Positions 1 to 11,498 are shown, numbered from the stretch's first letter. The stretch: DNA of 11,498 nt from a candidate division WOR-3 bacterium (GCA_965649055.1 CBFGJG010000056.1:1-11498); one strand, 5' to 3'. Program-made: numbers and translations. The notes: generated by a model not told the origin, from the sequence alone.

Positions 1-211
1 ATCTCTCTCTCTCGAGAGGGAATTTTTATACTGATGAATGCATAATAAAGAATTCCAGAATAAAGATATATTTAACATTAAAGAGGATAAAGTTTATTTG
101 AAGAACCCTTTGCACCTTTGCCCAAAGGTGTGAAGGGGAGACATAAAAGGGCATAAAAGGGTTTGATTTTAGCAAAAGAAAAAAATTAAAAATTTAAATG
201 GAGGTAATTTT
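1..211 (+). repeat. Conserved cassette leader, copy 1 (5' part truncated by window edge)
   Basis: 1-152 is nearly identical to 4879-5032 (one substitution at 100, a 2-nt indel in the hairpin loop, one substitution after the hairpin). Similarity resumes at the A-rich tract and GGAGGT RBS (200-205) before ATG 212. Contains a local 10-bp tandem duplication CATAAAAGGG x2 (142-161). Confidence 0.95.
106..153 (+). promoter_or_regulatory. Conserved leader stem-loop (candidate cis-regulatory RNA element)
   Basis: CCCTTTGCACCTT pairs with AAGGTGTGAAGGG (13 bp, two G-U pairs on the + transcript). Arms are identical in all three leader copies. Loop GCCC is complementary to a downstream GGGC. Confidence 0.6.
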
Positions 212-385
212 ATGATTGAAATAGTATTTCCTGGGATAATAGTAGATGCCTTAATCGGAAGAGCGAAACCAGAATGTAGATGCGATTGCTGGGATAGAGG
301 TTCAAGAGAAGGGGAAAACTGTTCAGCAGGTTCATATTGTAGCGCTCGTATGGATATAGGACAATTTGATGCATTTGCAGTATAA
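212..385 (+). CDS. Cys-rich RiPP precursor peptide 1, 57 aa: MIEIVFPGIIVDALIGRAKPECRCDCWDRGSREGENCSAGSYCSARMDIGQFDAFAV
   Basis: Manual translation; not in the ORF track. GGAGGT RBS 6 nt before the ATG; 5 Cys including CxCxC; directly upstream of a rSAM/SPASM gene; same position relative to the leader as the other precursors. Confidence 0.9.
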   Translation: MIEIVFPGIIVDALIGRAKPECRCDCWDRGSREGENCSAGSYCSARMDIGQFDAFAV

Positions 386-389
386 CTTT

Positions 390-418
390 AGGGGGACGGA
401 AGCATCCGACCCCCTTTT
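390..418 (+). terminator. Hairpin plus short U-tract between precursor 1 and maturase (leaky terminator or mRNA stabiliser)
   Basis: GGGGG-A-CGGA / AGCA loop / TCCG-A-CCCCC followed by TTTT; very GC-rich against an AT-rich background. Confidence 0.75.
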
Positions 419-436
419 CAAAAAACTGGAGAAAAA

Positions 437-1858
437 ATGAATGTTCCATTTATAAAAAAGTTAAAAGTAGGAAATAATTATTATATCTATGATGTGAATT
501 CAAATAATATTCTAAGGTGTGATGAAAAAATATATAATATGATAGATACGAGTTACTGGAATACTAATGAGAAAATAATTGAGTTCCAAAAGAAAGGTAT
601 CTTTTCCCTAAAAAGACCTAAGAAAATAGTTCCTCCTTTTTCATTTGAAGAGATGAGAAAAATTTTAGAAAATGATTTAGTTGGTATATCAATGTTTATT
701 TCAGATAATTGCAATCTTAAATGTAAATACTGTTTTTTTTCAAATAACTATTATAAAACAATAAGTAGACCTTTAAAAAACAATCTAATGCATTTTCCAA
801 TGGCAAAAAAAATCCTTGATTTTTATCTAAATCATAGTGAGAATAGTGAAAGAAAGATTATAACTTTTTATGGTGGTGAGCCTTTGTTAAATTTTAAAGT
901 GATTAAAAAAAGTATTGAATACATTAAAGAAAAGTTAAAGGATTATACAAAGGAAATTATATTTTCATTTACCACAAATTTATACACTATTACAGATGAG
1001 GAAATTGAGTTTATTATAAATAATAATATCAGATTAGCAGTTTCACTTGATGGTCCTAAAGATATTCATAACAAATTTAGGCTTGATAAAACAGGAAAAG
1101 GAACATTTGATGTAGTAATGAAAAATTTAAATAAAATAAAAGATAAAAATATTGAATTCTTTAAAAAGAATGTTGGTTTTATAAGTGTGGCTACAGGAGG
1201 AACAGATATTGAAAAGGTTGCCAAATTTTTTACAGAATATTTTTCTGAGAATGTGAGTGTTAAAATTGGAGGGCTTTCATTCCTTCCTATGAATGAGACT
1301 TCAGAATTTTATGGTTTCAAATACTCACCAAACTACAAAAATGAGGAATTTTTATACAATGAATATAAAGACTGCAAGATAAAAGGTAAATCTCAAATTT
1401 CCCATAATGTTCTTTTTGATTTTTATGAAATAGAATTTTCAAAAATTCATAACAGATTTATGATACCTCTTGGGGAGATTTTTTATTCAAGTAGTGGTTG
1501 TACCCCAGGACAATTAAGACCATTAGTTGATGTAAATGGCTCAATATTTCTCTGTGAAAAGACTGGTTTTACATTTCATATAGGAGATGTTATAAATGGA
1601 TTTGATTATGAAAAGTGTTATCGCCTTATGGAAGAATTTGCATTGATCAGAGACGAGATTTGCAGGGATTGTTGGGCTTTGAGGTTTTGTGGAGTTTGTT
1701 ATCTTTATGGGATAGATGAGGAAGGAAAACTGAACAAAGGAAGATTGATAGAGATGTGTAAAAAAGAGAAAAGGGCATATGAAGTATTATTGAGAAGATA
1801 CATAGAGATTAGAGAAAAGAAAATGGATGCATTTGATAATTTAAGAAAAAATGAATAA
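437..1858 (+). CDS. Radical SAM/SPASM peptide maturase (CcpM-like Cys-rich peptide maturase), 473 aa
   Basis: CNLKCKYC (CxxxCxxC), YGGEPLL and SLDG motifs; C-terminal Cys cluster GCTPG...FLCEK...CRDCWALRFCGVC...C; N-terminal extension (YYIYDVNSNNIL) typical of an RRE-like domain; GGAG RBS at 428-431. Confidence 0.93.
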   Translation: MNVPFIKKLKVGNNYYIYDVNSNNILRCDEKIYNMIDTSYWNTNEKIIEFQKKGIFSLKRPKKIVPPFSFEEMRKILENDLVGISMFISDNCNLKCKYCFFSNNYYKTISRPLKNNLMHFPMAKKILDFYLNHSENSERKIITFYGGEPLLNFKVIKKSIEYIKEKLKDYTKEIIFSFTTNLYTITDEEIEFIINNNIRLAVSLDGPKDIHNKFRLDKTGKGTFDVVMKNLNKIKDKNIEFFKKNVGFISVATGGTDIEKVAKFFTEYFSENVSVKIGGLSFLPMNETSEFYGFKYSPNYKNEEFLYNEYKDCKIKGKSQISHNVLFDFYEIEFSKIHNRFMIPLGEIFYSSSGCTPGQLRPLVDVNGSIFLCEKTGFTFHIGDVINGFDYEKCYRLMEEFALIRDEICRDCWALRFCGVCYLYGIDEEGKLNKGRLIEMCKKEKRAYEVLLRRYIEIREKKMDAFDNLRKNE

Positions 1859-2939
1859 TAAATTTTTGTTATTTATCTTTATTTTATTTCTAAATTGTTC
1901 TAAATACATTGAAAAAACCATAAATTTTAAGATTGCGAAAGAAATAGAAAGAGAAAGCCACTTTGAAGGCTTATATTTTCCTCAGTATATGGGAGGGAAT
2001 GATAGTTTTTTAATAATTTCAGGCATTCAGAGTCCTTCTCTTATGATAAATATAGAAAGAGATGAGGTTATAGAAACATTAGCGATTGATGGAGAAGGAC
2101 CAGGTGAAAAGAAGAACTGGGGGGATGCTCATTTCTATGGGAATAAACTACTTTGCGCTTATCATAGTAAGTTGATGGTTTATGAAAAAGAGAAGAATGG
2201 TTATAAACTAAACAAAGAGCTCGCTCTTCCTTTTAATGGATGGTATTTTAGGATTTTAAATGATACTTTATTAGTTTTTATGGTGATTGATAGATATGAA
2301 AATTTGTTTGTATTATTTAATTGGGATAATGGGAAGGTTCTATTAGAGTTTGGGGATGCACTTGTCTATCCTCAAAGAAGATGGAGACAAAAATTATTAC
2401 CTGATTTTCCTTATTATTTTTGTGTATATGATAGTTTTTTAATAGTATATGATTATTTTGTAAACAAATTTATTGTATATGACATTTTTAGCAAAAAAAA
2501 GATGATAATTTCTTGTCGTTCTATTAAGTATTGGAAAACTCCAAAAGTTAAATTTGATAAAAAACTACATAGATTTGTTACTCAGTGTCCCAAAGTAAAA
2601 ATAGCAACGAATGGGAAATATTTGTTTATAATGTTTGAAAAAGCTTGGTTATACAATTGGTCAATTTATAATAATAAGAAGATTAAGAATATGAGCCAAA
2701 AAGAAAAAGCAGATTTATATTCATCTTTATTTTATTATTTTATAGATGTTTATTTATTAGAAAATTATAAATATGTTGGGAGTATTTATCCATTCAACTC
2801 AAGCATCTTATTTAATGAAGATAAAAATATTCTTTATGAACCTGAATTGTTAATTGTTAATAAAGATAAAATAATAATTTTCCTTACTGATAATTGCAAA
2901 TTCAAAGTTAAATTACTACATATAAAAATTGACCTCTAA
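1851..2939 (+). CDS. Putative lipoprotein, 6-bladed beta-propeller-like, 362 aa
   Basis: N-terminus MNNK + hydrophobic stretch + FLNC (lipobox-like Cys16); GEGPGE motif typical of 6-bladed beta-propeller proteins; beta-strand-rich pattern; overlaps the upstream stop (translational coupling). Confidence 0.65.
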   Translation: MNNKFLLFIFILFLNCSKYIEKTINFKIAKEIERESHFEGLYFPQYMGGNDSFLIISGIQSPSLMINIERDEVIETLAIDGEGPGEKKNWGDAHFYGNKLLCAYHSKLMVYEKEKNGYKLNKELALPFNGWYFRILNDTLLVFMVIDRYENLFVLFNWDNGKVLLEFGDALVYPQRRWRQKLLPDFPYYFCVYDSFLIVYDYFVNKFIVYDIFSKKKMIISCRSIKYWKTPKVKFDKKLHRFVTQCPKVKIATNGKYLFIMFEKAWLYNWSIYNNKKIKNMSQKEKADLYSSLFYYFIDVYLLENYKYVGSIYPFNSSILFNEDKNILYEPELLIVNKDKIIIFLTDNCKFKVKLLHIKIDL

Positions 2940-4578
2940 TCCCTTTCTCCGTTTTCTTAGATTTCTTTCACCTTATTGGAGAAAGGGATTATTAGCATTT
3001 TTCTTTATGCTTGTTTCTATTCTCTTACAACTTCCAATGCCTTTCTTAACAAGATATATTCTTGATGATGTTATAAGGATGAGGAGTTTTAAGGTTCTTA
3101 ATATAATAGGGTTTTCTCTTATAGGTGTAATTATTATTCAAGGTATATCATTTTTTGTTGAAAGATATTTGCTTTCAACATTCAGGGCAAAGGTCTTGTT
3201 TGATTTGAAGGTTACATTATTAGATAAGATAGAGAGATTAAAATTATCATATTTTCATAATAAAGAGACAGGTTATCTTATGAGCAGGATTCAAGATGAT
3301 ACAAATCAGGTTCAGGGACTTCTTGCAGATACATTTATCTCATTTGTTCAAAATTTTCTCACATTCATAGTTGGGATATGTGCGACATTTTATTTACACT
3401 ATAAACTTGCAATAATATGTCTTTCAATATTGCCTTTATATGCTTTAACAACATATATATTTAATAAGAGGATAAGGGATTTGAGTTATGAATTAAGGGA
3501 GGCATTTGCGAAGGTATCAAAGGATTTACAGGAGTTGTTGTCAGGTATAATGATAATTAAGGCATTTACAGGAGAAAGATATGGGACATTAAGATTTATA
3601 AGGAGTTTGAGAGAAGGGATAAGGAAGACAGTTAAACTTGATATTACAGCAACTATATTTAATATTTTTTCAAATGTTATCTCATCAACAGGTCCAATAA
3701 TTTTGATATGGTATGGATGTTATGAGATAATGAAAGGGAGATTAACGATAGGCACACTTGTGGCGTTTAATTCATTTATCAGGTATCTATTTGCTCCCAC
3801 GCAAGCATTTATGCAGATGAATATTTCTATTCAGCAATCAATAGTTTCAATAAGGAGGATATTTGAGATAATGGATGAGGAGGAGGAAAGAGATAGAGGA
3901 ATAAAGATTGAAAGGATAGAAGGTAAAATTGAGTTTAAAAATGTTTATTTTTCTTATGATGGTATGAATGATATATTAAAGAACTTTTCATTGTTGATAT
4001 TTCCGGGTGAGAAGATAGGGGTAGTGGGAGAGAGTGGGATTGGTAAATCAACAATAGCAGGGTTAATTTTAAGGTTTTATGAACATAGGGAAGGAAAGAT
4101 TATGATAGATGGGATAGATATAAGGGATATTAATTTGAAATCATTGAGGGAAAGTATAAGTTATGTATCACAGGATATATTTTTGTTTTCAGATACGATA
4201 AGGGAGAATATAAGATTAGGTAAGAGAAATGCAACAGATATTGAGATAATAGAGGCTGCAAGGATATCAGGAGTTATGGATTTTGTGAAAAAGAAAGGGG
4301 GAGGTCTTGATACGAAGATAGGTGAAAGGGGGATAAGGCTTTCAGGTGGTGAGAGGCAGAGGATAGCGATAGCGAGGGCAGTATTAAAGAATGCACCTAT
4401 TGTGATACTTGATGAGGCAACGAGTAATCTTGATATAAAAAATGAGAAGAAGATAATAAGGCTTGCAATGGATATATTTAGGGGAAAGACGATGATAATT
4501 ATAACGCATAGAAAAACTCCATTAAATATGCTTGATAGGATAATAAAGATAGAAAATGGTAGTGCAAAAGAATTGTGA
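2929..4578 (+). CDS. ABC exporter, fused permease/ATPase (MdlB/MsbA-type) without a C39 peptidase domain, 549 aa
   Basis: N-terminal TM helices; Walker A GESGIGKST, Q-loop YVSQD, signature LSGGE, Walker B VILDE, H-loop ITHR. The TTG start is supported by alignment with the ATG of the remnant copy at 10699. Confidence 0.95.
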   Translation: MTSNPFLRFLRFLSPYWRKGLLAFFFMLVSILLQLPMPFLTRYILDDVIRMRSFKVLNIIGFSLIGVIIIQGISFFVERYLLSTFRAKVLFDLKVTLLDKIERLKLSYFHNKETGYLMSRIQDDTNQVQGLLADTFISFVQNFLTFIVGICATFYLHYKLAIICLSILPLYALTTYIFNKRIRDLSYELREAFAKVSKDLQELLSGIMIIKAFTGERYGTLRFIRSLREGIRKTVKLDITATIFNIFSNVISSTGPIILIWYGCYEIMKGRLTIGTLVAFNSFIRYLFAPTQAFMQMNISIQQSIVSIRRIFEIMDEEEERDRGIKIERIEGKIEFKNVYFSYDGMNDILKNFSLLIFPGEKIGVVGESGIGKSTIAGLILRFYEHREGKIMIDGIDIRDINLKSLRESISYVSQDIFLFSDTIRENIRLGKRNATDIEIIEAARISGVMDFVKKKGGGLDTKIGERGIRLSGGERQRIAIARAVLKNAPIVILDEATSNLDIKNEKKIIRLAMDIFRGKTMIIITHRKTPLNMLDRIIKIENGSAKEL

Positions 4579-4807
4579 TTTTTCTTGATTATTTTTATTA
4601 TATTGATAAAATAATTATATGTTTTTAATAATTTCTTTAACACTTCAAGATATAGATTCTCTTGCTTTGAAAAATGCTTCTGAGATAATAAACCTAAGGG
4701 AAAATCTTTATTCGCTTCAAGATGAATATAGAACTCTTTTTTCTCACTTTTTACAACCATTGATAATTCTTTATTTTTAAATATAGAAAATTTTTCAAAA
4801 AAAATCC

Positions 4808-4836
4808 TTGACAGGATTATATTTTTTATTTATAAA
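4808..4836 (+). promoter_or_regulatory. Sigma70-type promoter TTGACA-17 nt-TATAAA, with inverted repeat AATCCT-N4-AGGATT (4803-4818) over the -35 box
   Basis: Perfect -35 at 4808-4813, 17-nt spacer, 5/6 -10 at 4831-4836; lies at the 5' side of the repeated leader. Confidence 0.7.
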
Positions 4837-4983
4837 TAAAATATGCTTATGAGTTTCATCAAAAGCAGAAATAAATTAATCTCTCTCTCTCGAGAGGGAA
4901 TTTTTATACTGATGAATGCATAATAAAGAATTCCAGAATAAAGATATATTTAACATTAAAGAGGATAAAGTTTATTTAAAGAA

Positions 4984-5032
4984 CCCTTTGCACCTTCTTG
5001 CCCAAAGGTGTGAAGGGAAGACATAAAAGGGC
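4984..5032 (+). promoter_or_regulatory. Conserved leader stem-loop, copy 2
   Basis: CCCTTTGCACCTT-CTTGCCCA-AAGGTGTGAAGGG (4984-5017) with downstream GGGC (5029-5032). Confidence 0.6.
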
Positions 5033-5080
5033 TTGTGGAAGAGAAACGAAAAAATTAAAATTTGAAAATGGAGGTAAATT

Positions 5081-5323
5081 ATGAAAAAAATAAAATGTAT
5101 TATTATACTATTAATGTTAATTGGAATTATATGTAATTTATTTCTGACTTCGTCAGCAAATGAAATTCCATCGTTAGGTGATGGATTTGAATATCCACCA
5201 TATGAAGATGGAGGTGGTGAAGGGAATGTTCCAACTGGAACTAGATATTGGAGTGGATTTCCAGATAATCCTATATGGAACTGTGATTGTTATAACGTTG
5301 GTAATACTTGTTGGTGTGGATAA
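5081..5323 (+). CDS. Secreted Cys-rich peptide, 80 aa (Sec-type signal peptide; C-terminal CDC...CWCG)
   Basis: GGAGGT RBS; MKKIK + hydrophobic core + SSA cleavage-like site; acidic Gly/Pro-rich linker; WNCDCYNVGNTCWCG C-terminus. Confidence 0.88.
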   Translation: MKKIKCIIILLMLIGIICNLFLTSSANEIPSLGDGFEYPPYEDGGGEGNVPTGTRYWSGFPDNPIWNCDCYNVGNTCWCG

Positions 5324-5344
5324 AGGCGTTCTCGCCTTTATCCA
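5317..5344 (+). terminator. Perfect 12-bp hairpin overlapping the peptide stop codon
   Basis: TGGATAAAGGCG-TTCT-CGCCTTTATCCA followed by ATTTAT (weak U-tract). Confidence 0.7.
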
Positions 5345-5360
5345 ATTTATAAATTAATTT

Positions 5361-6362
5361 ATGATTTTGATTATTTTTTCACTTACTTTTGAAGAAATCT
5401 TTACACTTATAGATATTGATTCTCTGACTTCACAAATAATTTGCCATTATGGCCAAACACCAAGGATATATATATGGAAAGATAACTATATATTAGACTA
5501 TAATAATACTATGTGGTCAAAAGGTAAAGAAAAACTCATAGCAAATTTTGGGGATGGCCCTGATGAAATAACGAAAGGTTCTATGGTAAGACTTTATAAA
5601 GATTATTGTTACTTTCTTACTTCAAATGGTATTATGTCAATTTACAACTTAGAAAAAGATGAAATGGTGTTGAAAAGAATTATAAGAAATATTGGTATAA
5701 TTTTTGATTTTACCCTTGATTCAAGAGGGAACATTTTTATTTTTAGGCATAAGTCCTTATTCAGAGGTGGAAAACCTTGGTATGGTATTCAAAGGTTGAA
5801 GCCGGATGGGACACCTGAAAATAAAAATTTTCTTGAATTAGATGAGGAATACTTTGAATGGGTATTACAAATTGGGACTACAAGGGGGATGATTGAGATA
5901 CTTAATGATACATTATATTTTATAGAACCTCATAAACCTATTTTTTATAAATTTACTACAGATGGGAAATTGATAAAAAAATGTAAACTCAAAATTGAAA
6001 GATTTATTCCGCCAAAAGAAAAGTTTAAACCTCAAAGAATAGTTACAAATGATGAATGGTTTAAAAAAACTATAGAATGGGGAGAGACTTGGACACCACC
6101 TTTGAGGCTACTAAAGATACCACCTAAATATCTTCTAATATTTTATTTTGATAAAGGTGCATATATTGAAAAACCTAATGGTTTTATTGTTCTAATAGAT
6201 ACAAACGGAGATATATTAGATGAGATTAATATTGATAAACAACCTATTGGAATAGATGATAATGGAATTATATATTTTGCATCACCAAAACAGATAAACA
6301 AGAATGGCACTATGAAGATATTTAAATACAAGTTGAACATTGAGACGGGAAAAAATAAATAA
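5361..6362 (+). CDS. 6-bladed beta-propeller-like protein, 333 aa
   Basis: FGDGPDE motif near the N-terminus; NHL/propeller-like blades (FDFTLDSRGNIFIF, FYKFTTDGKLIK, LIDTNGDIL, IGIDDNGIIYF); short hydrophobic N-terminus. Confidence 0.7.
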   Translation: MILIIFSLTFEEIFTLIDIDSLTSQIICHYGQTPRIYIWKDNYILDYNNTMWSKGKEKLIANFGDGPDEITKGSMVRLYKDYCYFLTSNGIMSIYNLEKDEMVLKRIIRNIGIIFDFTLDSRGNIFIFRHKSLFRGGKPWYGIQRLKPDGTPENKNFLELDEEYFEWVLQIGTTRGMIEILNDTLYFIEPHKPIFYKFTTDGKLIKKCKLKIERFIPPKEKFKPQRIVTNDEWFKKTIEWGETWTPPLRLLKIPPKYLLIFYFDKGAYIEKPNGFIVLIDTNGDILDEINIDKQPIGIDDNGIIYFASPKQINKNGTMKIFKYKLNIETGKNK

Positions 6363-6379
6363 TTTTTGTTTTCATTTAT

Positions 6380-6979
6380 ATGAGAGCATTACGTATGATA
6401 AAAAAGAATATAATTTCTGAATTTCTTTTTTATTTAGTTGTCATTGTAATAATATTTTTTCAAAGCAAAATGATTATTTCAAGTAAAATGGAAGTATCTT
6501 TTTATAAAGTTCTTCTTTCTAATGTTCCTTTGAAGGAATATTCAATTATGAAGGAATATTCAATTATTTTAAGAGATACACTTTCAAATGATTTTGAATT
6601 TAATAATTTATATGGGAAAGGGATTTGTCTTATCTCAACAATATCACCGAAGGATTGTGGTAGTTGTCTTGAAGATGAGATAGAGTTTTTGAAGTATTTA
6701 AGAAAGAATATACCTGCATTACAGGTAATAGTTTTAATAGAGCATTATTATGGTTCAAATAAAGAGATATCGCCATGGATTAAAGACTATGGGATAGAAT
6801 ATCCATATTATTTTGATGTTGGTGGTATAGAGGATAGATGTTCATTAAAGAGTAGTTTATCTTGGAATTTTATAGTTAAAGATGGGAAGATAATAACGAG
6901 TTTTCTTCCACCGAAGGGGAGAATGGAAAAGAAGATATGTTTAAATTTATTAAGGGAATATGTGAGGATGAAGATATAA
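6380..6979 (+). CDS. Membrane-anchored thioredoxin-fold (TlpA/redoxin-like) CxxC protein, ~199 aa; exact start uncertain
   Basis: N-terminal TM helix; beta strand then DCGSC then helix (LEDEIEFLKYL); later YGIEYPYYFD and FIVKDGKI segments typical of TlpA/AhpC-like folds. Confidence 0.7.
   Translation: MRALRMIKKNIISEFLFYLVVIVIIFFQSKMIISSKMEVSFYKVLLSNVPLKEYSIMKEYSIILRDTLSNDFEFNNLYGKGICLISTISPKDCGSCLEDEIEFLKYLRKNIPALQVIVLIEHYYGSNKEISPWIKDYGIEYPYYFDVGGIEDRCSLKSSLSWNFIVKDGKIITSFLPPKGRMEKKICLNLLREYVRMKI
6531..6566 (+). repeat. In-frame 18-bp tandem duplication
   Basis: TGAAGGAATATTCAATTA x2, encoding KEYSIM-KEYSII. Confidence 0.95.
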
Positions 6980-7061
6980 ATAAAAAAAATCCTTTACTGG
7001 ATTCTATTTTTTTTATCAAAAGCAGGAATAAAATAAACTCTATCGAAAGGGAATTTTTATA

Positions 7062-7090
7062 TTGATAAAAGGATAAAAGATATATATAAT
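7062..7090 (+). promoter_or_regulatory. Candidate sigma70 promoter TTGATA-17 nt-TATAAT unique to leader copy 3
   Basis: TTGATA 7062-7067, 17-nt spacer, perfect TATAAT 7085-7090. AT-rich context raises the chance-match rate. Confidence 0.55.
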
Positions 7091-7119
7091 TTTAAAGAGG
7101 ATAAAATTTATTTGAAGAA

Positions 7120-7167
7120 CCCTTTGCACCTTCTTGCCCAAAGGTGTGAAGGGAAGACATAGGGCAA
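7120..7167 (+). promoter_or_regulatory. Conserved leader stem-loop, copy 3
   Basis: Stem 7120-7153 identical to copy 2; loop TTGCCC complementary to GGGCAA at 7162-7167. Confidence 0.6.
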
Positions 7168-7201
7168 AATAAATGAAGATAAAACCTTAAAAGGAGGAAA
7201 A

Positions 7202-7354
7202 ATGATAAATATATTAAATTTGTTAGAGGGTAAAATAAAGCCAGTTTGTGGATGTGGTTGTCCCTGTTGGTGTGGTGGCGTTATTAATGATTATGCAAAT
7301 GGTTATATGGACGGTGCTTGTGACGCTGGGCTTGCCTCTAATGAAGCTGCATAA
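7202..7354 (+). CDS. Cys-rich RiPP precursor peptide 3, 50 aa: MINILNLLEGKIKPVCGCGCPCWCGGVINDYANGYMDGACDAGLASNEAA
   Basis: Manual translation; not in the ORF track. AAGGAGG RBS; CxCxCxCxC plus a sixth Cys; directly upstream of the second rSAM/SPASM gene. Confidence 0.92.
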   Translation: MINILNLLEGKIKPVCGCGCPCWCGGVINDYANGYMDGACDAGLASNEAA

Positions 7355-7374
7355 AGAATGGATGCTAGTAGTCA

Positions 7375-7409
7375 TAATCCCGGGAAGACTAAAGTCCTTC
7401 CCGGGATTA
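7375..7409 (+). terminator. Perfect 13-bp hairpin between precursor 3 and maturase (no U-tract; likely stabiliser or attenuator)
   Basis: TAATCCCGGGAAG-ACTAAAGTC-CTTCCCGGGATTA. Confidence 0.7.
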
Positions 7410-7432
7410 ACATAACATTTAATAAATAATAG

Positions 7433-8878
7433 ATGAATGTTAAGAAATTTTTTATAAATAATAGGTTTTTCGTTTATGACAGAAATACTAATTTTATTTT
7501 AGAAGTAGATGAGAGGTTGTATAATATTCTTGATGAAAAAATAGGTTTTAATGAAAAAATAAAACGCAAAATCAAAAGAGACAGAAGTTTGAGCGAAACT
7601 ATAAAAAATATTGAAAATATACAAAATCAATATGGATGTTTCAGACCATTGGAACTAAAAGGATTTAAGTTTGACGAAAAAATGAAAAAAGAAAATATAA
7701 ACAGAGTGGTTCTCAATATAACGGAGGAATGTAATCTCAGATGTAAATATTGCACTTATTCAGGTTTATATAATGGTCATAGAGTTCATACAAATAAATT
7801 TATGGATTGGGCTATTGCTCAAAAAAGCATTGAGTTCTTTTTGAAACATTGTGATAATAAAGAAAAGCAAGTCTTAGGTTTCTATGGAGGTGAACCTTTA
7901 TTAAATTTTGAGATAATTGAGGCATCGGTGCGTTTTATTAAAAATAAAAATGTAAGAAATTTAAATTTTTCAATAACAACAAATGGAACCTTGCTGAATA
8001 AAAAAATTATTAATTTTTTTGTTGAAAATGACTTTCAGGTTTTTATAAGTCTTGATGGTCCTAAAGATATAAATGATATATATAGAGTTTTTCAAAATTA
8101 TAAAGGTTCTTTTGATATTGTATATAGAAATGCTTTATTTATAAAGAAATTATATCCTGAATACTACAATAAAAAGGTTGGGTTTTCTGTGGTTATTCAT
8201 CCGCCGTATAGATGCGAAGAATTTTATAAATTTTTTACAGAAAATCCATTAGTTAAAGATAACATTCATATTTTTTCTTTTGTGAATCCATTTGGAACAA
8301 CTTTTTATAATAATTTTACAAAGGAAGAAATTAATGAGTATCTCCCTTTCTGGAATAAGATTAGGGAAAAATTTGTAAAAATGATGGTGAAAGAAGAATA
8401 TAATGATGAGATAAAAATTCTGTTTGAACTTTTTGGAAAAAGTGTTTATCAAATACATTTAATGCCAAAAGGGATAATCAAAGAAAAATATTTACATCCT
8501 GGTGGAATATGTTATCCTGGTTTTTATAAAACATTTGTTGGAACCTCAGGAAAGATTTATCCGTGTGAAAAACTTGGATATGTTTTGGAGATAGGAGATA
8601 TATTTGAAGGGATAAATGTTAATATGGTTAATAATATTATTAATGAATTCATAAGTATAAAAGAAGAATTATGCAAAGAATGTTGGGCTGTAAGGTTATG
8701 TAATCCATGCTTTTTAAGTGCAATTGAAGGTAACAAATTTTCAGTTAAAAGAAAAAAAGAATTTTGCAATATGAATAAAAAAAATATTGAAAAGAATCTT
8801 GAAACATATATTATGATAATGATGGATAATAAAGATGCTTTTGATAGTGAAAAGTTTAAGGTAAGTTTTACTCAATGA
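7433..8878 (+). CDS. Radical SAM/SPASM peptide maturase (CcpM-like), 481 aa
   Basis: CNLRCKYC, YGGEPLL, TTNGTLL, SLDGP; C-terminal GICYPG...YPCEK...CKECWAVRLCNPC...C; RRE-like N-terminus (FFVYDRNTNFIL). Divergent paralogue of 437-1858. Confidence 0.93.
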   Translation: MNVKKFFINNRFFVYDRNTNFILEVDERLYNILDEKIGFNEKIKRKIKRDRSLSETIKNIENIQNQYGCFRPLELKGFKFDEKMKKENINRVVLNITEECNLRCKYCTYSGLYNGHRVHTNKFMDWAIAQKSIEFFLKHCDNKEKQVLGFYGGEPLLNFEIIEASVRFIKNKNVRNLNFSITTNGTLLNKKIINFFVENDFQVFISLDGPKDINDIYRVFQNYKGSFDIVYRNALFIKKLYPEYYNKKVGFSVVIHPPYRCEEFYKFFTENPLVKDNIHIFSFVNPFGTTFYNNFTKEEINEYLPFWNKIREKFVKMMVKEEYNDEIKILFELFGKSVYQIHLMPKGIIKEKYLHPGGICYPGFYKTFVGTSGKIYPCEKLGYVLEIGDIFEGINVNMVNNIINEFISIKEELCKECWAVRLCNPCFLSAIEGNKFSVKRKKEFCNMNKKNIEKNLETYIMIMMDNKDAFDSEKFKVSFTQ

Positions 8879-8885
8879 AGATATT

Positions 8886-9764
8886 ATGATTTTACTATTC
8901 ATATTAAGCAAAATGATCCTTAACGAGAAGTTCATAGGAGTTATAAGTGATATTGAAGGATTTAAATTTGTGAAAATTATAGATGAAAATTTTTATTTCT
9001 ATTCCAAAGAGATGTTAAAAGTATTAATTTATAATAAAAATTTATTTAAAATTGGAGAAATAGATTTTAAAGAAGGTGATTGTCCTGAATGTGTAAAAAG
9101 GAGATTTAATAACATATTTATAGATACAGAAAATATAATAGTCTGTTCACCATTTCAAAAGAAGATAGTTTTATATAATTCAAACGGAATATTTAAAAAA
9201 ATAATAAATACACAGAACCTTCCATATTTTGTATTAAAGGATAGAGAGAGGATAATGACATATGAAATTAAAGAGTATAAAAGTTTTATTGCTTTTTATG
9301 ATTTGAATGGAAAATTTCTTAATAATAAAGAAATACCCCAAACAGATTTTACAAAAAAATATAATGTCTATGAAATCCCATCAGCAATTTGTTTTGATAA
9401 TAGTAGATTATTTATACCTGAAAGCTACCGATTTGGAATTTGGGAATACATGATTGAAAAGGATATAATAAAAAGATTTATAAAAACAAGAGATTTCTTT
9501 AAAAATCCTATAATAAAGAAGAGGGGGAGCTCTACAGGAGTTATAATTTTATCAACTATCAATAATATTTTTATCTATGATTCATTAATTGTAATATATG
9601 CAATTGGAACAAAATGTGGAAATTTATTGCTGCTTTGTAATAAAAAAGGTGAAGAATTATTATTATTAAAAAAATTGAAATACGATGATATTATAACAGA
9701 TGGGAGAAATATTTATGCAATTAAGTCAGATACTATTTATAGCCTTTCTCTTCTCCAAAAGTAG
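8886..9764 (+). CDS. 6-bladed beta-propeller-like protein, 292 aa
   Basis: Short hydrophobic N-terminus; repeated blade motifs (IVLYNSNGIFKK, IAFYDLNGKFLN, LCNKKGEEL); EGDCPEC at the position of the GxGPxE motif. Confidence 0.6.
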   Translation: MILLFILSKMILNEKFIGVISDIEGFKFVKIIDENFYFYSKEMLKVLIYNKNLFKIGEIDFKEGDCPECVKRRFNNIFIDTENIIVCSPFQKKIVLYNSNGIFKKIINTQNLPYFVLKDRERIMTYEIKEYKSFIAFYDLNGKFLNNKEIPQTDFTKKYNVYEIPSAICFDNSRLFIPESYRFGIWEYMIEKDIIKRFIKTRDFFKNPIIKKRGSSTGVIILSTINNIFIYDSLIVIYAIGTKCGNLLLLCNKKGEELLLLKKLKYDDIITDGRNIYAIKSDTIYSLSLLQK

Positions 9765-10569
9765 TGCTAAATTAGGACTCCCATATGATATTGAGAAAAT
9801 TAATAATTTTTATGTTGTTCTTAATGTGGAAAAAAAATTACTATTTCTTAAAAGAGGTTTATTCTCATTTAAAGTGATAAAAGAAGTTGATTTGTCAAAT
9901 ACTATATCTTCACAATCATTTTTTTTAAAGGTTGATAGCATAGTATATCTGGTAACAGGATTTAAAAATACGGATTTTTATTCTATCAATTTTGACAGTT
10001 TGGAATATGTTAATTCCGTTCCTTATAAAGTTACTGGTGGAATTTCAACAGATGACTATATAATTTTATTTGGAAATTGGAAGGGTAAATTTATTCATTT
10101 CTATACAAAAAAATTTTTATATAAAAATTCATTTTTGGTTTCTTTTAAAATCATGGACAGGATTTATTCTTTTTATTCCTGTGATACAATTTATTTTACT
10201 TCACCTGAAAAATTGATTATCTATAAATTTATTGATACTATGCTATTGGATAGTATAATTATAGATAGTATGAATTGCATATTAAGTGTAAAATACGGAA
10301 ATAAAGATATAGTATTTAAGATTACTGGTTTTACAGGTCTTGTCTGGAGTAAGGAATTTAGTATAGTTCCTTCTTTTTTTAAATATCCTGATTCAATTTC
10401 TAATTTTCTTTTTGATAATAATAAGAGTATATTATCAAATTCCTATTTATTTTTTAAAGATAAAACAAAAAAGATTGGAGATGGGAGAATAACGATAAAA
10501 CAAGTAAATAAAATTTATTTTATTTTAAAAAACAAGAAAATTGAAGTTTTTAATTTTAGAAAATTATGA
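9715..10569 (+). CDS. Putative exported beta-rich (propeller-like) hypothetical protein; start probably ATG 9715 rather than 9700
   Basis: GGAG at 9703-9706 precedes ATG 9715; MQLSQILFIAFLFSKSSA resembles a signal peptide; blade-like FIHFYTKKFLYKNSF and DTIYFTSPEKLIIYKF, the latter resembling DTLYFIEPHKPIFYKF in 5361-6362. Confidence 0.55.
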   Translation: MQLSQILFIAFLFSKSSAKLGLPYDIEKINNFYVVLNVEKKLLFLKRGLFSFKVIKEVDLSNTISSQSFFLKVDSIVYLVTGFKNTDFYSINFDSLEYVNSVPYKVTGGISTDDYIILFGNWKGKFIHFYTKKFLYKNSFLVSFKIMDRIYSFYSCDTIYFTSPEKLIIYKFIDTMLLDSIIIDSMNCILSVKYGNKDIVFKITGFTGLVWSKEFSIVPSFFKYPDSISNFLFDNNKSILSNSYLFFKDKTKKIGDGRITIKQVNKIYFILKNKKIEVFNFRKL

Positions 10570-10706
10570 TAAAGATTTTAAATTTTAAAATGACAGATAT
10601 TAAACAAAATACTAAATGTGAATGTTTTTCTATTGGTTGTGAAAATAGTTCAGGGTATTTAGAAGGATATGCAATGGGTATGTATGCATTCTCTGGAAAT
10701 GAATAA
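10566..10706 (+). CDS. Second precursor-like peptide of cassette 3, 46 aa: MIKILNFKMTDIKQNTKCECFSIGCENSSGYLEGYAMGMYAFSGNE
   Basis: Manual translation. ATGA overlap with the upstream stop; shares MIxILN, IK, CxC, YxxGYxxG and NE with peptide 7202-7354. Confidence 0.75.
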   Translation: MIKILNFKMTDIKQNTKCECFSIGCENSSGYLEGYAMGMYAFSGNE

Positions 10707-10786
10707 TAATCTTCTTTTCCGTTTTTTTAGATTTTTTTCACCTTATTGGAGAAAGGATTATTAGCATTTTTCTTTATGCTTGTTTC
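10699..10786 (+). pseudogene. 5' remnant of the ABC exporter (frameshifted, rest deleted)
   Basis: Aligns with 2929-3017. MNNNLLFRFFRFFSPYWRK vs MTSNPFLRFLRFLSPYWRK; a 1-nt deletion (AAGGATT vs AAGGGATT) gives TAG at 10762-10764. Confidence 0.92.
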
Positions 10787-10794
10787 ATTTATAT

Positions 10795-10844
10795 CCATTG
10801 ATAATTCTATATTTCTTGAATATAAAAATTTTCAAAAAAAGTCC
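10795..10844 (+). repeat. Start of a fourth leader/promoter copy, cut by the IS
   Basis: CCATTGATAATTCT...AATAT...AAAATTTTCAAAAAAAGTCC matches 4757-4807; homology ends at the position of TTGACA. Confidence 0.8.
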
Positions 10845-11498
10845 TGTTATTTCTATAATATATGTCATATGTTTTTACTATAAAATATGTCACATTGTTT
10901 TCTAAACATAAGTTCTTTCCTTCAATATTTCTTCTATTCTTCTTTCTTTCCTTATCATTTCATTATTTTCTGATATCTTTGTTTCAAGTATTACTTCTCC
11001 ATTATAAAGTATCCATACTTTATTCTCTTTTGATATCCTCAACTCAACAATAGCCCTTGCAAAGTTTAATTTCTTTCCTGTCGGATTAAGTTGTATCTTT
11101 TCCTTAAATATGCTTATTGTATTATCCTTGTTTACTCTCCTATAATATCTCTTAGTAAATATTAAATCAAGATCTTTCTTTCCTATATCCCTGTATACCG
11201 AACCCTCTACTTTATGGGAATATTTCAAATTATACCAGGGAATAAACTCTTCTACAAGATATTTATTCGCTTCTTCATAGTCCTTTATCTTCCTTATCCA
11301 CATCTCGTTTATTAGTCTGTCTTGAAAAACTCCAAATAGCCTTTCTATTCTTCCTTTCGCTTGCGGTGAATTCGCTGTTATCAATGTTATTCCTAATTCT
11401 TCAAGTGCTTTCTGTATATTCGTGTCCTCTTGTTCCTCGCTTACATCGTAATGTATACCTCCAATCCTTGTCGTCTTAAAATGTGATGCCCTGTCCAC
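10845..11498 (-). mobile_element. IS1202-like (ISNCY; IS481-related) insertion sequence, right end, partial
   Basis: End starts with TGT at 10845 exactly where leader homology stops; two ~25-bp imperfect direct repeats (TGTTATTTCTATAATATATGTCA at 10845, TGTTTTTACTATAAAATATGTCA at 10870) adjacent to the transposase stop. Confidence 0.8.
10902..11498 (-). CDS. DDE transposase, IS1202-like (ISNCY), C-terminal part; N-terminus lies outside the window
   Basis: ALEELGITLITANSPQAKGRIERLFGVFQDRL integrase-core motif and RRVNKDNTISI C-terminal motif; ORF is open at the window edge. Confidence 0.9.
   Translation of the reverse strand: MDRASHFKTTRIGGIHYDVSEEQEDTNIQKALEELGITLITANSPQAKGRIERLFGVFQDRLINEMWIRKIKDYEEANKYLVEEFIPWYNLKYSHKVEGSVYRDIGKKDLDLIFTKRYYRRVNKDNTISIFKEKIQLNPTGKKLNFARAIVELRISKENKVWILYNGEVILETKISENNEMIRKERRIEEILKERTYV

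Follow-up and report, generated by a model that had tools for sequence, protein, structure and literature searches.

Tandem operons for candidate Cys-rich peptides behind a reused promoter/leader module in an uncultured hot-spring bacterium

The stretch of DNA analyzed here, referred to as the window, is the whole of contig C56 (11,498 nt) of assembly GCA_965649055.1, the genome of a candidate division WOR-3 bacterium. The source appears to be an uncultured bacterium of a hot spring that has a type IX secretion system (T9SS); its assembly, designated G000, comprises 2.08 Mb in 85 contigs, is 93.8% complete and has ~27% G+C. The window appears to consist of three tandem operons and the broken start of a fourth, each for a small exported Cys-rich peptide. 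A common plan is seen three times: a leader, a small Cys peptide gene, a GC-rich hairpin and a set of accessory genes. Units 1 and 3 are peptide operons with a CcpM-like radical S-adenosylmethionine (rSAM)/SPASM enzyme, while unit 2 encodes a Sec-type Cys peptide and a ResA-like CxxC protein and has no rSAM gene. The map (Table 1) is based on a listing of open reading frames (ORFs) and on family scans (Pfam, NCBIfam) of 13 window proteins; all the operon genes lie on the + strand. The reading developed below is that of tandem peptide operons placed behind a family-specific promoter/leader module that has been reused, with repeated flanks left as scars of rearrangement; as a whole it is given a probability of roughly 0.65. 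Other genomes used for comparison are G001 (a sister genus), G002 and G003, all from the same family as G000, and G120 and G125 from two distant families of the same phylum.

Table 1. Features of the window in order of position.
Feature	Position	Strand	Description
Leader copy 1	1..211	+	5' end cut by contig start; terminator-like hairpin 2-21, then T-run; (CT)5 3-12; AAGAGGA Shine-Dalgarno (SD)-like box 81-87; hairpin 106-137; true ribosome-binding site GGAGG 200-204
pep1	212..385	+	57-aa Cys-rich precursor candidate, MIEIV..CRCDCW..
Hairpin after pep1	390..415	+	GC-rich, then T-run, between precursor and maturase; -18.4 kcal/mol, z -3.3
rSAM/SPASM maturase 1	437..1858	+	CcpM-like; TIGR04068 296.5 bits (cut-off 500); PF04055 9.7e-20
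P362	1851..2939	+	362 aa; six-bladed beta-propeller model; probable lipoprotein
ABC exporter	2929..4578	+	ATP-binding cassette protein, fused permease and ATPase; membrane and ATPase domains only
OEP/TolC-like efflux gene remnant	4619..4746	+	First ~43 codons, within short ORF 4619-4780
Pre-promoter segment and sigma-70-type promoter of unit 2	4750..4843	+	TTGACA 4808-4813, 17 nt, TATAAA 4831-4836
Leader copy 2	~4844..5080	+	Presumed 5' untranslated region (UTR); (CT)5 4881-4890, SD-like box, hairpin 4984-5017
pep2	5081..5323	+	80 aa; signal-peptide-like N-terminus; C-terminal motif CDC..CWCG
Hairpin after pep2	5318..5343	+	-18.8 kcal/mol, z -7.9
P333	5361..6362	+	333 aa; probable DUF5128-type propeller
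T199	6380..6979	+	Putative membrane-anchored ResA/TlpA-like CxxC thiol-disulfide oxidoreductase
Leader copy 3	~6982..7201	+	Internal promoter 7062-7090; hairpin 7120-7153
pep3	7202..7354	+	50-aa precursor, MINIL..CGCGCPCWC..GYMDG
Hairpin after pep3	7375..7409	+	-23.5 kcal/mol, z -4.9
rSAM/SPASM maturase 2	7433..8878	+	CcpM-like; TIGR04068 338.3 bits (cut-off 500); PF04055 1.2e-16
P292	8886..9764	+	292-aa accessory protein; position of the two ~300-aa proteins of related operons
P289	9700..10569	+	289-aa second accessory protein; start uncertain
pep4	10566..10706	+	Second precursor of unit 3; pep3 paralog; relatives in G120 and G125
ABC 5'-end remnant	10707..10786	+	Frameshifted; 91% identical to 2937-3017, one-base indel
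Start of fourth leader module	10788..10844	+	Pre-promoter segment, cut at 5' edge of -35 position
ISNCY-family insertion sequence (IS)	10845..11498	-	Transposase C-terminal part 10902-11498, cut by contig end

The precursor genes pep1, pep2 and pep3 are preceded by GGAGG-type ribosome sites and followed by hairpins that none of 200 shuffled sequences equalled in stability in any of the three cases. The hairpin between pep1 and its maturase gene is probably a partial terminator. No stable hairpin was found downstream of pep4 (z -0.9). None of the precursors matched an NCBIfam or Pfam model. Alignment of 13 peptides from nine genomes shows a family with a short MIxI start and a CxCxC run, plus a GY..G tail in the closer members, and pep4 matches three peptides of G125 and G120 by phmmer (E 8e-6 to 2.5e-4). 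The signal-peptide-like N-terminus that sets pep2 apart was judged by eye.

The two maturases are 32% identical and both carry the CxxxCxxC motif of radical SAM enzymes (CNLKCKYC and CNLRCKYC). CcpM is the best NCBIfam model for each and aligns near full length; the lachnocin, RumMC, PapB and SCIFF maturase models follow. Both proteins score under the curated equivalog cut-off of TIGR04068, i.e., they are related to CcpM and are not equivalogs. The ABC protein of unit 1 has no C39 peptidase domain, and its alignments to peptidase-containing exporters begin past the peptidase part.

Homologs of maturase 2 (E<=1e-30) occur in 26 of 272 phylum genomes, G000 included, and in 17 of 110 genera; none was found at that threshold in the other three genomes of the G000 family. 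Gene order was read in 13 of the other neighborhoods: a small ORF of the CxCxC type lies directly upstream of the rSAM gene in nine, and a homolog of the window ABC gene is present in eight. The G120 locus (contig C1) has the full order of peptide, rSAM enzyme, two ~300-aa proteins, second peptide and ABC gene, like unit 3, and the G125 locus (C30) holds the same set with the second peptide placed before the two ~300-aa proteins. Because this order recurs in two distant families and the peptide family can be traced between them, unit 3 is an inherited operon type rather than a local assemblage. The leader does not travel with it: when a covariance model of the leader was run over 17 related rSAM loci, the G003 copy was the sole match, and the G120 and G125 loci had no leader. 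A third rSAM peptide cluster was seen in G000 itself (C7; L026 1-1766), where a Gly/Cys-rich peptide of 50 aa and a hairpin accompany an rSAM/SPASM gene, with ABC ATPase genes nearby.

Unit 2 has a different chemistry in prospect. The N-terminus of T199 forms a hydrophobic helix, and its CxxC, at a helix start, is kept in the G001 homolog (46% identity). A profile made from these two sequences placed ResA first in the PDB (E 0.0038). The T199 model shows the thioredoxin-like order of elements at low confidence (predicted local distance difference test score, pLDDT, 56), and all 14 of its Foldseek hits at E<=0.001 are thioredoxin-family folds, mostly thiol-disulfide oxidoreductases such as ResA, DsbE, StoA and TlpA. 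The unit recurs in G001 (C21): after the leader come two Cys peptides with signal peptides, then the DUF5128 protein, the T199 homolog and an OEP-like gene. Directly upstream of that leader lies a 464-aa ORF (L062, 52-1446) that by eye resembles a histidine kinase of the hybrid type, receiver domain included, and could be a regulator of the G001 operon.

The four accessory proteins P362, P333, P292 and P289 are mutually 17-23% identical, and none had a Pfam hit at E<=10. The AlphaFold model of P362 is an all-beta propeller (pLDDT 76.7, predicted template-modeling score 0.80). Foldseek placed propellers on top, the highest TM-score (0.51) being that of the DUF4221 structure 3s9j. By VIA-align, the model matches the NHL domain of Brat with Z 18.8 (256 aligned, root-mean-square deviation 3.3) and 3s9j with Z 18.6 (303 aligned, 4.4). 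P362 thus models as a six-bladed DUF4221/NHL-like propeller. Its family is small, nine proteins including itself at E<=0.001 among 1.84 billion representatives, and a separate homologous-protein search returned P362 only. Cys16 is invariant in the eight aligned members, as expected for a lipoprotein; three of the eight match PF17170 (DUF5128; best E 2.3e-6), and the language-model neighbors of P362 are DUF5128, DUF4221 and BF3164-type families. A P362 paralog was seen on C3, outside any peptide context.

P333 is probably a DUF5128-type propeller. Its language-model neighbors are DUF5128, TolB-like and DUF4221 families, and its G001 counterpart passes the PF17170 cut-off (24 bits vs 22.9). A genome search with P333 gave one credible homolog, in G002, and no leader or peptide was seen upstream there. 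The P292 search gave three chance-level fragments only, with internal stops. When the P362 family was aligned by hhalign with P333, P292 and P289, the probabilities were 6.7%, 6.2% and 0.4%, respectively. The accessory genes had been described at first as including beta-propeller-like proteins; this is borne out by fold for P362 and indirectly for P333, but not for P292 and P289.

What joins the units is the leader. A repeat search aligned positions 1-118 with 4879-4996 at 99% and with 7015-7132 at 64%; over the aligned leader core, copies 1 and 2 agree at 99%, and copy 3 shows 91% identity to both. Copy 3 is without the stretch that carries the -10 hexamer in the other copies, and contains the best sigma-70 consensus match of the window (TTGATA-17-TATAAT, 11 of 12 positions); the transcript of unit 3 may start downstream of the repeat tract. 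A leader profile (nhmmer) found 11 copies in G000: the three of the window, two on C34, and one each on C17, C32, C33, C70, C81 and C20. A covariance model of the core found 10, the eleventh being cut by a contig end. All have the same plan. TTGACA and a TATAAA-like box, 17 nt apart, come first, followed by a (CT)n tract (n=2-9), an invariant AAGATAT and an SD-like box that lacks a start codon; a GC hairpin then precedes the real ribosome site. The invariant blocks are AAGATAT and, after 13 nt, GAG..AA.TTT.

The position of the leader hairpin is conserved across genera. When leaders of the four genera were aligned with MAFFT, stems that differ in length were placed out of register, so each leader was folded singly. 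In all 14, a hairpin forms at one and the same position (-16 to -24.6 kcal/mol, z -3.6 to -6.8); the stems differ by genus (CCCTTTGCA/TGCAAAGGG, CCCCTGCA/TGCAGGGG, CCTGCATCC/GGGTGCAGG), and that of G002 is unrelated. The SD-like box is likewise present in 14 of 14, in a weaker AGAGGA form in the window-type leaders. The dinucleotide tract varies between paralogs from two to nine units, and at the same place it is (CT)n in G000 and G003 and (CA)n in G001 and G002 ((CA)6-8 in the sister genera).

The leader is regarded here as a cis-acting element that is transcribed and most resembles a promoter/UTR module in repeated use. Its length, its invariant blocks and the hairpin kept in position across four genera would also suit a sensing riboregulator, i.e., a riboswitch or an attenuator controlled by a protein or small RNA, that defines a co-regulated secretome regulon rather than acting as a constitutive enhancer. 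Two alternative pairings of the (CT)n tract point the same way: in the consensus fold the tract forms five pairs with the SD-like box, and in the window-type leaders it can instead enter the terminator-like hairpin that precedes a T-run. The terminator-like hairpin, however, is absent from a second leader subfamily (B) and from the leaders of the relatives. No multi-helix structure resembling a ligand pocket is predicted, the hairpin alone being well supported (z -2.5 for the whole-leader fold), and no regulator gene is consistently adjacent. Rfam, searched at E<=1 with the window, gave no match to the leader, and one chance-level hit elsewhere (E 0.88). Regulation by sensing is kept as a tentative explanation, and a somewhat doubtful one, even though all the identifiable cargo is exported.

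The cargo behind the leaders is diverse. The first-pass annotation, a reading of the sequence alone, had named as support for its proposal a genome search with the leader that gave many copies, each followed by a different small peptide and a propeller gene. The copies are there, but Cys-peptide cassettes follow only three of the 11; other genes follow seven, and the gene behind one is lost at a contig end. These other genes encode mostly T9SS-tagged proteins and lipoproteins, among them an LVIVD protein in the group with T9SS sorting domains, and a Cys-rich lipoprotein paired with a DUF5074 protein in three paralogous copies. The C17 leader precedes a gene for a small protein whose homolog in G002 (C31; BLASTP E 1e-16) is also behind a leader. 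There are two leader subfamilies, and within each, copies ahead of unrelated genes are 96-99% alike; for example, the leaders of C33, C81 and C34 are 96% alike and have different downstream genes.

Near-identical copies at many places, several of them beside another high-copy repeat or an IS, might suggest a miniature mobile element (of the kind known as miniature inverted-repeat transposable elements) that was scattered by transposition and lies before genes only incidentally. This is highly improbable. All 11 copies point toward the downstream gene, each with a ribosome site and start codon after it, and no terminal inverted repeats surround the copies. Moreover, leader-cargo pairs are kept between genera, C17 with C31 of G002 and unit 2 with C21 of G001.

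Leader relatives were limited, among the genomes searched, to the same family. With strict filters, the model matched one of 60 relatives, G003. With laxer filters on the three same-family genomes, G003 scored 46 bits, G001 had two credible copies (36 and 35 bits) and G002 had one (24.7 bits), accepted after the sequence was read. Two further G001 matches (C58 and C37, ~25 bits) were rejected; they have no promoter, repeat or hairpin. Behind the G003 leader lie a Cys peptide of 40 aa and a hairpin, then an rSAM enzyme of a third kind (26% identical to those of the window) and an ABC-2 exporter. On C47 of G001 (L060 ~1380-1480, minus strand), the leader is followed by an ORF of only 20 codons, then a promoter-like site and the start of another ORF. 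By eye, this ORF resembles an IS200/REP-associated transposase.

Several side observations concern the leader loci. Behind the leaders of subfamily B, another Cys-rich protein is paired with a propeller-like partner: a lipoprotein of 358-378 aa, in which several CC pairs occur, and a DUF5074 protein (27-28 bits, cut-off 27.2). The pair is located at 5558-6694 and 4372-5523 of L008 (C32) and at 1297-2373 and 108-1268 of L010 (C20). The lipoprotein paralogs start with ATG and seven A residues on C32 and C20, and with ATG and eight on C81 (L005 ~60-75), where the frame is shifted; the extra base may reflect a slippage switch or else an error in sequencing. A separate high-copy repeat ending in ..CCATGTGCATGATCTTTTCC occurs at 38 places in G000 (e.g., C17:473-568, C34:17761-17855 and C3:21-77), as well as on C24 of G003 (L014 ~1735-1760), and is present at five leader copies. 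A TTGACA-like hexamer (at least five of six bases) lies 19-21 nt past the repeat in 35 of the 38 copies, compared with 2.1% of random positions, and a -10 box, a ribosome site and a gene (once a tRNA gene) come after it. Most copies are at contig ends and run inward into an apparent ORF start; four internal copies show no continuation into a transposase. Either the repeat is a mobile sequence whose insertions fall a set distance ahead of promoters, or it is an upstream promoter element held in common.

The flanks of the units carry remnants. The OEP gene broken after unit 1 is intact (443 aa) on C40, where HlyD- and AcrB-family genes follow it. At the start of C40 lies a second ABC 3' end, with 91% identity to 4558-4746 of the window, and the identity stops near 4747, at the start of the leader-2 module. 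After pep4, 80 nt of an ABC gene start were retained, and the sequence then jumps to a pre-promoter segment: 4750-4808 recurs at 10788-10845 with 85% identity. That segment is interrupted by the IS, the end of which (10845-10901) is 100% identical on C62, C57 and C82. C17 could extend the window on the far side of the IS, although the 20 nt that precede the promoter are different.

In the first-pass annotation, the window was interpreted as a polymorphic array: homologous recombination between a conserved leader and a conserved ABC flank would swap the peptide, maturase and propeller cargo and give strain-specific toxin/immunity or pherotype sets. Its description has stood well: three consecutive units are present, the first two leaders are almost identical, the cargo is highly divergent and switches type, and further copies of the ABC 5' end and of the pre-promoter segment come after unit 3. 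The unrelated cargo behind near-identical leaders, the repeated flank, the fast divergence of the accessory paralogs, together with the narrow family of P362, and the different rSAM clade behind the G003 leader would all suit exchange. Nevertheless, cassette exchange is considered unlikely. The supposed ABC recombination site is a frameshifted piece left over from a deleted ABC gene; it runs straight into the next pre-promoter segment and has the look of a deletion scar. The leader does not mark the boundary of a cassette; of the swapping proposal, the leader module before unrelated cargo and the scars of recombination remain. The same annotation had named leaders mostly before unrelated genes or in random orientation, and a fixed cassette order in relatives, as signs against its own reading. 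Orientation is uniform, but both signs are seen at least in part, because seven of 11 leaders precede non-peptide genes and whole-unit order is kept, that of unit 2 in G001 and that of unit 3 in G120 and G125. No integrase or site-specific recombinase was found among the window proteins scanned, only the ISNCY transposase.

Strain variants of the array were also looked for. None was found in a single hot-spring metagenome DNA run of low depth, which contains 26% of the sampled words of the window and is too thin as a test; its contigs are short, and the sides of the joints measure 20-25 nt, apart from one of 63 nt inside the ABC gene. No RNA run with the sequence turned up. A degenerate leader pattern scanned against metagenomes gave no matches. 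The repeated flanks are read here as scars of duplication, deletion and IS insertion rather than as exchange sites. Duplication of whole units, with an internal deletion and an IS hit, is a simpler account of these flanks than a maintained exchange system. The locus looks like an uncharacterized peptide family combined with a regulatory element, not a cassette-swapping machine.

The explanation preferred here, tandem peptide operons behind a reused leader module, leads to the following scheme. In units 1 and 3, the precursor would be cross-linked in the cytoplasm by the CcpM-like rSAM/SPASM enzyme, presumably through thioethers of the sacti- or ranthipeptide kind, and exported by the ABC pump. 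In unit 2, a signal-peptide-type Cys peptide would be oxidized outside the cytoplasm by the membrane-anchored ResA/TlpA-like protein. Each unit would add one or two fast-evolving secreted or lipid-anchored proteins, which may bind the cognate peptide as immunity protein, receptor or chaperone. The operon start is predicted to be an expression module made of a consensus sigma-70 promoter and a ~240-nt 5' UTR with repeat, SD-like box and hairpin. The leader part would act after transcription start by setting mRNA stability and/or translation, and a decoy-SD stabilizer of the cry3A type is a possible mechanism.

Several points weigh against this scheme. The sub-cut-off CcpM scores make the predicted cross-link chemistry less certain, and the family scans of the window proteins found no leader protease gene. 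T199 matches nothing in Pfam even at E<=10 and its model has low confidence. The link of P333 to DUF5128 consists of a weak pairwise match to the G001 protein (E 2e-5) and language-model neighbors, and P292 and P289 are without a detectable family and have weak hhalign scores to that of P362. The leader appears dispensable for rSAM peptide operons, as the cluster on C7 has none. Within G000 the hairpin stem is near-invariant, so that its covariation comes down to a few between-genus changes. The promoter, transcript ends and leader function are all predictions from sequence. The mRNA-stabilizer part is further weakened in that the RNase J family TIGR00649 is not above its cut-off in the 93.8%-complete G000 (44.6 vs 400 bits). 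A bolder scheme would make the leader a self-propagating promoter and riboregulator, whose hypermutable dinucleotide tract switches exported-product operons on and off as a phase-variable secretome, and would make the peptide/propeller pairs fast-evolving toxin-immunity or signal-receptor modules re-assorted behind it; this is improbable.

If the preferred scheme is broadly correct, the window is of interest in four respects. First, the peptide family (MIxI...CxCxC...GY..G) is phylum-wide, unstudied and predicted to be rSAM-modified; its hosts are probably thermophilic, and its products may be heat-stable natural products. Second, secreted six-bladed propellers of the DUF5128/DUF4221 kind that are tied to peptides would give large orphan families a testable role. 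Third, two routes to cross-linked Cys peptides, one by rSAM enzyme and the other by Sec export and a thiol-oxidoreductase, would operate side by side behind the same leader. Fourth, the leader would be a lineage-specific 5'-UTR element, new to Rfam, that marks genes for exported products, and a clear case of promoter/leader reuse.

The closest known systems are the rSAM operons for thioether peptides among the ribosomally synthesized and post-translationally modified peptides (sactipeptides, ranthipeptides, CcpM). They share with units 1 and 3 a Cys-rich precursor upstream of an rSAM/SPASM gene, a hairpin between the two and an ABC exporter. CcpM is mentioned in one paper as a "previously annotated" cluster (PMC9062424). 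In contrast to CcpM-type operons, the enzymes here score below the cut-off, the precursors match no model and the ABC protein has no peptidase domain; the window operons also encode secreted proteins of the propeller type, one or two of them, and a further precursor, and the host is an uncultured hot-spring lineage with a T9SS, not one of the Clostridia. The accessory proteins recall the DUF5128 (PF17170), DUF4221 (3s9j) and BF3164-type propellers of the Bacteroidota in the fold of P362 and in the PF17170 hits of relatives, whereas in Pfam neither P362 nor P333 gave a match at E<=10. In Bacteroidota, propellers of these families are probably linked to small peptides. A full-text literature search gave nothing relevant on the DUF5128, DUF4221 or BF3164-type families. 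T199 resembles ResA, TlpA and CcmG in its membrane anchor, CxxC motif, thioredoxin-like order and ResA best matches, but its sequence match is weak (20.6 bits) and it lies in a small-peptide operon, not in a cytochrome-maturation context.

The leader has two partial counterparts. STAB-SD of Bacillus thuringiensis cry3A (PMC4113751) is a 5' mRNA stabilizer in which an SD-like sequence far upstream in a long UTR of highly expressed exported products blocks RNase J. The leader resembles it in the distant SD-like box, the long UTR and the exported products, and differs in that no RNase J scores above the cut-off in G000 and that the box of the window-type leaders is weaker (AGAGGA). Integron-like cassette arrays differ in that no integrase is found among the 13 window proteins scanned. 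Putative mobile promoters are similar upstream regions (>=80% over >=50 nt) before non-homologous genes of one genome, sometimes near IS elements and possibly carrying RNA regulatory motifs (PMC3575422; Nijveen, Matus-Garcia and van Passel 2012). The leaders of C33, C81 and C34 (96%) and copies 1 and 2 of the window (99%), each set with unrelated cargo, fall within this definition. Unlike such promoters, the window module combines a promoter with a ~240-nt structured UTR, precedes genes for exported products and keeps the same cargo across genera.

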